Shown in pieces: positions 2,431-3,005 of a stretch of 6,803 bases of DNA. Under the pieces are notes generated by a model. The model did no database searches. It was not told the origin of the DNA and saw only the letters and a list, made by a program, of their open reading frames with translations. Location: IMG/VR virus record IMGVR_UViG_2778261347_000004. One strand, written 5' to 3'. The translations under genes were made by a program, and so were the position numbers. How positions within the stretch are numbered: position 1 is the stretch's first letter; each line of letters opens with the position of its first letter. This DNA is from a virus. Its lineage: Duplodnaviria > Heunggongvirae > Uroviricota > Caudoviricetes.

Positions 2431-3005
2431 TCACCGACTTCGGTGTTGTAGGCGTTCAGGAAGGATTCGTAGTCGATTCGTTCTGCCTTGCGACGTTCAG
2501 GTTTAACCTGCCCATCGCCGCCCCCGTTAGGGGGTAAGGGGGTATTTGTATTTATTGTCTTTTGTATATTGTCTTTTGTGTTTAGCTGACTTGGCTTATA
2601 CCCATTAGCCGACTCGGCTAATGTTTTATTAGCTGTTTTAGCTAATGTTAAGCTGTCCTGGCTAATCCACTGAGAAACCACCTTGTTCACTCCGATTTTC
2701 ACGCCATCAGCAATGAGGAATTTACGCTCAATAAGCTGGCGCTTGGCAGCGCAAACATGAGTGTGATGAATACCTGTCATGGCTGCTATCTGCGTGTTTG
2801 TGAGTCGATCCATCGGCTTATTGAATCCGTATGTCTTGCGCATGATAGCGAGCATCACCTTCATCTGCCGGACGGTTAAATCAGCCATCAGCAGACTGTC
2901 GATAATCTCGTTAGCAACGCGCATGAAACCATCTTCGGTATCTGCCACGCGATGCTCCACGACCTCCAGTTGAGGCCTGTAATCAGCTAACTTAACGACG
3001 CCCAT
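2277..3005 (-). CDS. O: Lambda O-like replication initiator (iteron-binding N-terminal domain); ORF as sequenced is 242 aa, C-terminal part probably out of frame
   Basis: N-terminal region ...[55 protein letters not shown] resembles lambda O as recalled (...VADLDDGYARLSN...KRQFKVLLAILRKTYGWNKPMDRITDSQL); AGGAG Shine-Dalgarno 6 nt before ATG 3005; origin iterons lie inside the gene as in lambda. Confidence 0.85.
2541..2581. other. AT-rich DNA-unwinding element of the phage origin, with tandem 12-bp repeat ATTGTCTTTTGT (2554-2565, 2568-2579)
   Basis: About 80 percent A+T tract immediately adjacent to the iterons on the downstream side of the O reading frame, the same relative layout as lambda ori. 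Confidence 0.6.
2582..2665. repeat. Origin iterons: four 17-18 bp imperfect palindromes (TTAGCTGACTTGGCTTA 2582-2598; TTAGCCGACTCGGCTAA 2605-2621; TTAGCTGTTTTAGCTAA 2629-2645; TTAAGCTGTCCTGGCTAA 2648-2665)
   Basis: Four direct repeats with internal dyad symmetry at 20-24 bp spacing, located inside the O-like gene. Confidence 0.8.

Follow-up and report, generated by a model that had tools for sequence, protein, structure and literature searches.

The 6,803-bp stretch of DNA analysed here (the window) is the early region of a lambdoid prophage, and in the middle of its O-like gene, at positions 2521-2665, a cluster of palindromic repeats stands beside an AT-rich tract and a set of C- and G-runs. 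This raises the question whether the segment is the origin from which the prophage replicates its DNA, to which specificity type such an origin would belong, and whether it could still be active in this particular copy. In phage lambda the O protein binds four iterons in the middle of gene O and forms the O-some, which bends the DNA and opens an adjacent AT-rich tract, where the helicase is then loaded; lambda initiation also requires transcription through the origin (PMC7466680, PMC12663957, PMC3349717). The segment in the window has the anatomy of such an origin, it is homologous both in position and in sequence to the origins of lambda and P22, and its motif is restricted to this one site. 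With a probability of about 90%, we read 2521-2665 as the theta-replication origin of a lambdoid prophage of the HK97/H-19B type, situated within the linker-coding middle of the initiator gene O.

The presence of four palindromic iterons of the TTAGCYG-N-GGCTAA type at 2582-2665, as put forward in the original prediction, was borne out, and all four were located (Table 1). When the window was scanned for TTAGC-N7-GCTAA with at most one mismatch, four dyad-symmetric sites were found in 84 bp and one further match was found at 3253. This lone iteron-like site (3253-3269, TTTGCCAGCTCCGCTAA, one mismatch) lies inside cII and is within chance expectation, dinucleotide-preserving shuffles (n = 2,000) having given a mean of 0.24 matches per window. 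Four matches within 90 bp were obtained in 0 of the 2,000 shuffles, even when two mismatches were allowed; as the pattern was derived from the same data, these shuffle figures are illustrative and do not amount to a formal test. A repeat search recovered the family at 2581-2602, 2604-2625 and 2628-2649, to which a second register added 2651-2666, and also returned a perfect 10+1+10 palindrome at 2603-2623. The occurrence of the same repeats at non-origin sites in related phages had been named beforehand as the observation that would speak against an origin. In the complete HK97 genome five matches with at most one mismatch were found, where 1.1 would be expected by chance; four of the five are clustered in O, and the single other match lies in the tape-measure gene.

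The place of the iterons within the gene was compared with that in lambda and P22. The first iteron begins at codon 114, downstream of the Phage_rep_O domain, and on the sense strand of the window O gene the four iterons start at 340, 360, 384 and 407, which corresponds to a spacing of 20, 24 and 23 bp. The lambda iterons ITN1-4 (NC_001416) start at 39034, 39054, 39078 and 39101, and the P22 repeats at 352, 372, 396 and 419, so that both phages show exactly this spacing. P22 gene 18 has been described as containing four repeats of ~20 bp with a different sequence (PMC8022706). The P22 record BK000583 carries a rep_origin feature of 145 bp in this gene (32840..32984, with the note 'similar to phage lambda'), and in a BLAST alignment this feature maps exactly onto 2521-2665 of the window. 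A run of 57 bp, AAACACAAAAGACAATATACAAAAGACAATAAATACAAATACCCCCTTACCCCCTAA, which comprises the AT-rich tract and the C-runs, is identical in the two, whereas over the greater part of P22 gene 18 and the HK97-type O gene the nucleotide identity is only 40-70%. The comparison with the lambda and P22 origins thus confirmed, in position and in spacing, the proposed lambda ori layout of iterons followed by an AT-rich region inside O. Translation of the minus strand likewise agreed with the claim that the AT-rich and G-rich stretch encodes the interdomain linker.

Immediately after the iterons follows the AT-rich tract (2543-2581), which is presumed to be the DNA-unwinding element. In terms of nearest-neighbour duplex stability it ranks among the least stable 0.3-1.2% of all 30- and 40-bp segments of the window. 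It begins with ACACAAAAGACA, as in lambda, and the start of the tract is the identity peak of the whole gene in comparisons with lambda, P22, a Klebsiella phage and a Providencia phage; it is the second-highest peak against a Yersinia phage, and phiES15 peaks at the iterons instead. The tract had been described as 41 bp long and as containing a tandemly repeated 12-mer. It is indeed present, and the 12-mer ATTGTCTTTTGT occurs at 2554-2565 and 2568-2579, but its length is 39 bp and the repeat unit is really the 13-mer TATTGTCTTTTGT, whose copies at 2553-2565 and 2567-2579 are separated by one base. Because the period is consequently 14 bp, the two copies are read in different frames.

On the far side of the tract lies a module of two C-runs and one G-run (2521-2542), which contains three of the seven G5/C5 runs of the window. 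It had been described as a G-rich inverted repeat. As a run motif, CCCCC-GTTA-GGGGG, it is real and recurrent in relatives, but as a structure it is unremarkable, the hairpin (2521-2534) folding no better than shuffled sequence of equal composition (z = -1.0 and -0.3). A specially stable hairpin was ruled out on this ground, and the module is described here by its runs. At least 12 variants of its sequence were seen, nearly all with a length of 22 bp, and their C- and G-runs sit in different codon phases and encode different peptides; furthermore, two of the three CCC codons (a rare codon for Pro) in the O and helicase genes fall within it. Where the C-terminal domain is of the lambda type, relatives have another inverted repeat in place of the module. 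The many variants, the constant length, the differing codon phases and peptides and the heavy use of CCC could mean that the module is itself an origin element at the DNA level and not just the coding sequence of a Pro/Gly linker, for instance a G+C clamp or the helicase-entry boundary of the unwinding zone, shared by those lambdoid origins that lack a lambda-type O C-terminal domain. We put this forward tentatively and regard it as rather doubtful.

Table 1. Features of the origin segment and of the surrounding early region; positions are those of the window.
Feature	Position	Strand	Remarks
Iteron 1 (gene order)	2649-2665		Sense TTAGCCAGGACAGCTTA; one mismatch, in right arm; frame +1
Iteron 2	2629-2645		Sense TTAGCTAAAACAGCTAA; exact match; with flanks, 19-bp ATTAGC-N7-GCTAAT
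Iteron 3	2605-2621		Sense TTAGCCGAGTCGGCTAA; exact match; core of perfect 21-bp palindrome 2603-2623
Iteron 4	2582-2598		Sense TAAGCCAAGTCAGCTAA; one mismatch, in left arm; frame +2; abuts AT-rich tract
AT-rich, strand-asymmetric tract	2543-2581		39 bp, A5 C2 G6 T26, 20% G+C; T-rich on +, A-rich on O sense strand
C-run/C-run/G-run module, probable right arm of origin	2521-2542		22 bp; CCCCCGTTAGGGGGTAAGGGGG, sense CCCCCTTACCCCCTAACGGGGG; encodes PLPPNGG of interdomain linker
O-like initiator open reading frame as read in the window	2277-3005	-	Residues 1-206 native, then 36 out-of-frame residues
Phage_rep_O domain (Pfam PF04492) in O-like protein	Residues 19-113		E = 1.7e-33
Native frame of last 54 O codons	2218-2382	-	Now detached from rest of gene
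DnaB-like replicative helicase gene	845-2221	-	Intact; DnaB_C E = 4.6e-78; counterpart of P22 gene 12 / HK97 P
Small open reading frame	2992-3153	-	
cII	3189-3554	-	
cro-like gene	3577-3822	-	
cI-like repressor	3883-4620	+	
N-like gene	5391-5663	+	

Selection on the element was studied in its relatives. When IMG/VR was scanned with an alignment of five N-terminal domains, 80 loci were obtained, which together with the phage records made 83 relatives, with N-terminal domains 60-99% identical to that of the window and with 37 distinct iteron blocks. All relatives have four iterons at the same spacing, except for two lineages with six. Over the 37 blocks the columns of the arms had a mean entropy of 0.11, 32 of the 40 being invariant, against 0.55 for the 7-bp centres and 0.71 for the spacers. 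Where an Ala codon of iterons 2 and 3 has its third base inside the arm, it is GCT in 74 of 74 cases, and Leu is encoded by the uncommon TTA in 73 of 74, whereas the Ala codon with its third base just outside the arm varies freely (T 34 : C 38). As judged from the sequence comparisons, the iteron arms and the AT-rich tract are under purifying selection at the level of the DNA.

This bears directly on an explanation in which the segment has no role as DNA, the repeats being a by-product of a low-complexity linker peptide made of LAxxAN repeats and of Thr/Asn/Lys-rich and Pro/Gly stretches. It is true that the interdomain linker is encoded here, that iterons 2 and 3 are read in one frame, and that PLPPNGG is specified by C/G runs whose hairpin, as reported above, is no better than shuffles. 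However, the DNA motif recurs in iterons 1 and 4 in the two remaining frames, where it specifies unrelated peptides, so that the four sites are read as ISQDSL, LAKTAN, LAESAN and KPSQL. Since the motif occurs in three frames and the synonymous sites of the arms are invariant, a peptide-repeat source of the DNA repeats is excluded. The different frames of the two 13-mers in the AT-rich tract, the 57-bp run shared with P22 in genes that are otherwise so diverged, and an iteron spacing equal to that of lambda despite the differing peptides also stand against this explanation, and we leave it only a very slight chance. The palindromes, together with the T-runs on the + strand, could alternatively be intrinsic terminators or regulatory hairpins antisense to O, or binding sites for CI, Cro or another regulator. 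A consensus scan returned two terminator-like sites on the + strand (2603-2623 and 2615-2635), and the hairpins formed by the central iterons are strong (z = -6.4 and -5.1). Two such sites, however, are no excess over the 0.8 ± 1.0 expected, and the probable operators flanking cI share a ACCTTTGTTAT-type motif that is unlike the iterons. Moreover, the spacing, which is that of the lambda O sites, and the covariation with the O N-terminal domain described below point to the initiator as the protein that would act here. A regulatory role of this kind is therefore considered highly improbable. A consensus scan of 2200-3300 gave no promoter-like site, and antisense terminators and an internal promoter were both ruled out as candidates, the terminator-like sites not being in excess and promoter-like sites being absent.

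The interpretation of the segment as an origin has its own weak points. No footprint or origin assay on this type of iteron, no paper that gives its sequence and no study of an HK97 or H-19B origin was found in the searchable literature, and no origin is annotated in any of the HK97-type records inspected. The relatives are phylogenetically non-independent, so that fewer independent observations underlie the conservation counts than the figures suggest. The G-rich inverted repeat folds like its shuffles, and its conservation is not fully separable from the coding of the Pro/Gly linker. The window contains three DnaA boxes with one mismatch, none of them in or next to the element; this was counted on the same side, although for a lambda-type origin it is neutral. 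Finally, the cognate initiator is frameshifted in the window, which means that the origin may be inactive in this genome.

The frameshift is caused by a 34-bp deletion, defined relative to HK97, the O26:H11 prophages and all other relatives, between two copies of the 9-bp direct repeat GGCGTTTTC, of which the copy at 2387-2395 is retained. It shifts the O frame after residue 206 of 273, whereby the last 67 residues are replaced by 36 unrelated ones, and it uncouples the O stop codon from the helicase start. A search for the deletion junction in 5,426 complete E. coli genomes, in IMG/VR and in 92 fetched loci gave no match, and this draft contig is the only record of the truncated O protein. 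Either slipped-strand deletion private to this copy has crippled the initiator, or the assembly contains an error; probably, the initiator encoded beside the origin is defective or else the assembly is wrong. The element may accordingly be an origin by descent that is dead in this genome, and a relic unless it is complemented. We take this to be a serious possibility, if one somewhat short of an even chance. The segment that O has lost at its C-terminus is the one that accompanies the downstream DnaB-like helicase gene in the relatives inspected, and the absence of the junction elsewhere also counts in favour of a dead origin. On the other hand, the origin element of the window is intact and identical to that of the intact O26 prophages, and as the window is a 6.8-kb piece of a draft assembly, the deletion may have arisen from faulty assembly or sequencing. 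O could also be supplied in trans by a second prophage with this specificity, and some genomes carry two or three copies of the region. As O lacks its last 67 native residues, firing in this genome would need an intact O of the same specificity in trans, unless the assembly is in error. If the deletion is real, this copy of the Stx1a-type prophage would be replication-impaired. The lack of an intact cognate initiator in cis, and with it the possibility of a dead origin, concerns activity in this genome and not the identity of the element.

The iterons had also been claimed to define the replication specificity of the phage. The covariation between the type of iteron and a motif in the N-terminal domain of O supports this claim. 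Every relative with TTAGC/GCTAA arms has ..(I/K)HHTH.. in this domain, every relative with an ..HHTH.. motif there has these arms, and other iteron types go together with other motifs: TTTACC-N5-GGTAAA with MAPTKCS in P22 and BTP1, TTACC-N7-GGTAA with ILPHKCS in Klebsiella RCIP0034 and Turner, and TCCCTC-N6-GAGGGA with LPVKRCN in lambda. The HHTH stretch may be the recognition helix; no solved structure matches the O N-terminal domain by sequence. The parts of the origin are found apart in natural mosaics. P22 and BTP1 have iterons of their own but agree with the window in the AT-rich tract, the C/G-run element and the C-terminal half. With iterons of another sequence, and with homology to P22 that starts only within the last arm of the last iteron, the window stands outside the P22 specificity group. 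In the Stx2a phages (e.g. LC487996) the shared part is limited to the C/G-run element and the C-terminal half, behind an unrelated N-terminal half. Cronobacter phiES15 and Salmonella SEN34 have TTAGC-type iterons with other C-terminal domains and P-like loaders, and wherever a P22-type C-terminal domain occurred in the records inspected (HK97, P22, BTP1, Stx2a 981509 and PSTCR7), a DnaB-like helicase gene came next.

The gene at the O position of LC487996 (905-1852) was also inspected. Its N-terminal half is unrelated to that of the window, is rich in His and Ala, has DNA repeats of its own of the GCCGCACATGA type and is without the RKTYG motif common to all other O proteins compared. From just before the C/G-run module onward (window 2480-2561) the gene joins the sequence of the window. 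The location of this join indicates a recombination junction inside the origin.

From the homology with oriλ, a mechanism can be proposed in which O binding, unwinding, helicase recruitment and origin activity would follow one another at this site. Dimers of the winged-helix N-terminal domain of O would bind the four ATTAGC-N7-GCTAAT iterons and assemble into a DNA-bending O-some. On supercoiled DNA, and with transcription from pR passing through, the O-some would destabilise the adjacent 39-bp AT-rich tract. The C-terminal domain of O would then bring in the phage DnaB-like helicase encoded directly downstream, which would replace the P/DnaB route of lambda in the way that gp12 does in P22. 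The C5/C5/G5 module on the far side is probably the G+C-rich boundary, or right arm, of the unwinding zone; its position is that of the right-hand inverted repeat of lambda.

The window is the complete contig NKNR01000107.1 of the draft assembly GCA_002458035.1. Its replication genes are all on the minus strand and the cII, cro, cI and N genes are arranged in lambdoid order. The helicase gene lies directly downstream of O, where an origin of the oriλ type would have its helicase or loader. The O/helicase segment is 99% identical to the HK97 genes O (gp54) and P (gp55), and it is likewise matched by many Stx-converting phages and Salmonella phages. The Stx1a prophage of E. coli O26:H11 (H19, 11368, 97-3250 and others) is 100% identical to the whole window except for one indel, the 34-bp deletion. 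Dyad motifs of the ACCTTTGTTAT type are common to the AT-rich intergenic regions flanking cI and upstream of N (3821-3901 and 5096-5169). These regions are probably the OR and OL operators, and their motif is clearly unlike the iterons. Between cI and N lies a low-G+C open reading frame of 98 residues (4661-4957, + strand) with a hydrophobic N-terminus and without annotation. It includes a 21-bp tandem repeat (4810-4852) and the least stable DNA of the window, and it looks like a moron-type insert. Another open reading frame, of 164 residues (6059-6553, - strand), had no Pfam match and is recorded only as 'hypothetical' in O26 genomes; its N-terminal half is coiled-coil-like and CxxC...CxxC motifs are found near its C-terminus.

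Much of this was already known: the element is of a textbook kind, the homologous interval of P22 bears an origin annotation, and phages sequenced long ago have DNA 99-100% identical to that of the window. The iteron consensus may be undocumented in searchable sources, although its derivation is routine. The unusual and new feature of this copy is the 34-bp deletion that shifts the frame of O. Hundreds of prophages of E. coli and Salmonella, with Stx1- and Stx2-converting phages among them, have HK97-type O genes, and the value of the analysis is mainly for annotation, the ATTAGC-N7-GCTAAT consensus allowing replication-specificity (incompatibility) groups to be called from sequence alone. Given that Stx production depends on phage DNA replication (PMC7466680) and that the Lamassu and OLD defence systems sense palindromic phage origins (PMC12663957; bioRxiv 10.64898/2026.07.10.737580), knowledge of the position of the origin should be of some practical use.

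In relation to known systems, the sequence indicates that the element matches oriλ in architecture at every position, while its iterons are of another sequence. In both, the origin occupies the middle of a gene of the O family, where it comes straight after the N-terminal DNA-binding domain, and it has four dyad-symmetric iterons of ~18-19 bp at start-to-start distances of 20/24/23 bp. A tract of ~39 bp that is A-rich on the sense strand and begins with ACACAAAAGACA comes immediately after the iterons, and on the right follows a further element, which in the window may have the character of an inverted repeat. The two differ in the iterons themselves (ATTAGC-N7-GCTAAT in the window, TCCCTC-N6-GAGGGA in lambda), in the corresponding stretch of the N-terminal domain (IHHTHVC against LPVKRCN) and in the right arm, where the window has the C5/C5/G5 module and lambda has TCAGAGAATTCTGGCGAATCCTCTGA. 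In addition, the O protein of the window belongs to those with a P22-type C-terminal domain, and its partner is a phage DnaB-like helicase instead of lambda P and the host DnaB.

With the P22 origin the element has in common the interval, the iteron spacing and the 57 bp that hold the AT tract, both 13-mers and the C-runs, as well as the type of C-terminal domain and the DnaB-like helicase gene that comes next; it is set apart from P22 by the iterons (TTTACC-N5-GGTAAA in the latter) and by N-terminal domains that are only distantly similar. The O protein and replication specificity of HK97 have been treated as a separate predicted type (PMC2629481), and a difference in origin specificity is expected between P22 and the HK97-type phages (PMC2629481, PMC8022706). 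Over the element, HK97 gp54, the Stx phages Nil2, 1717 and 2851, the ST104-like Salmonella phages and the O26:H11 Stx1a prophages are 98-100% identical to the window, and it is the same origin as in these O genes. The HK97 group has been delimited by an N-terminal domain at least ~92% identical to that of HK97 gp54 (PMC2629481). The window belongs to it, with an O gene region 99% identical in DNA to that of HK97 and four iterons that differ from those of HK97 in one base only, at the centre of iteron 3.

The iteron-containing plasmid origins (pSC101, R6K, RK2, P1/F) resemble the element in that clustered initiator sites stand beside an AT-rich unwinding element with short direct repeats. However, the iterons of plasmids are direct repeats to which Rep monomers bind, and DnaA boxes usually stand with them, whereas the sites in the window are palindromes, which fits binding by a dimer, the element has no DnaA box, and the origin is placed within the coding sequence of its own initiator.

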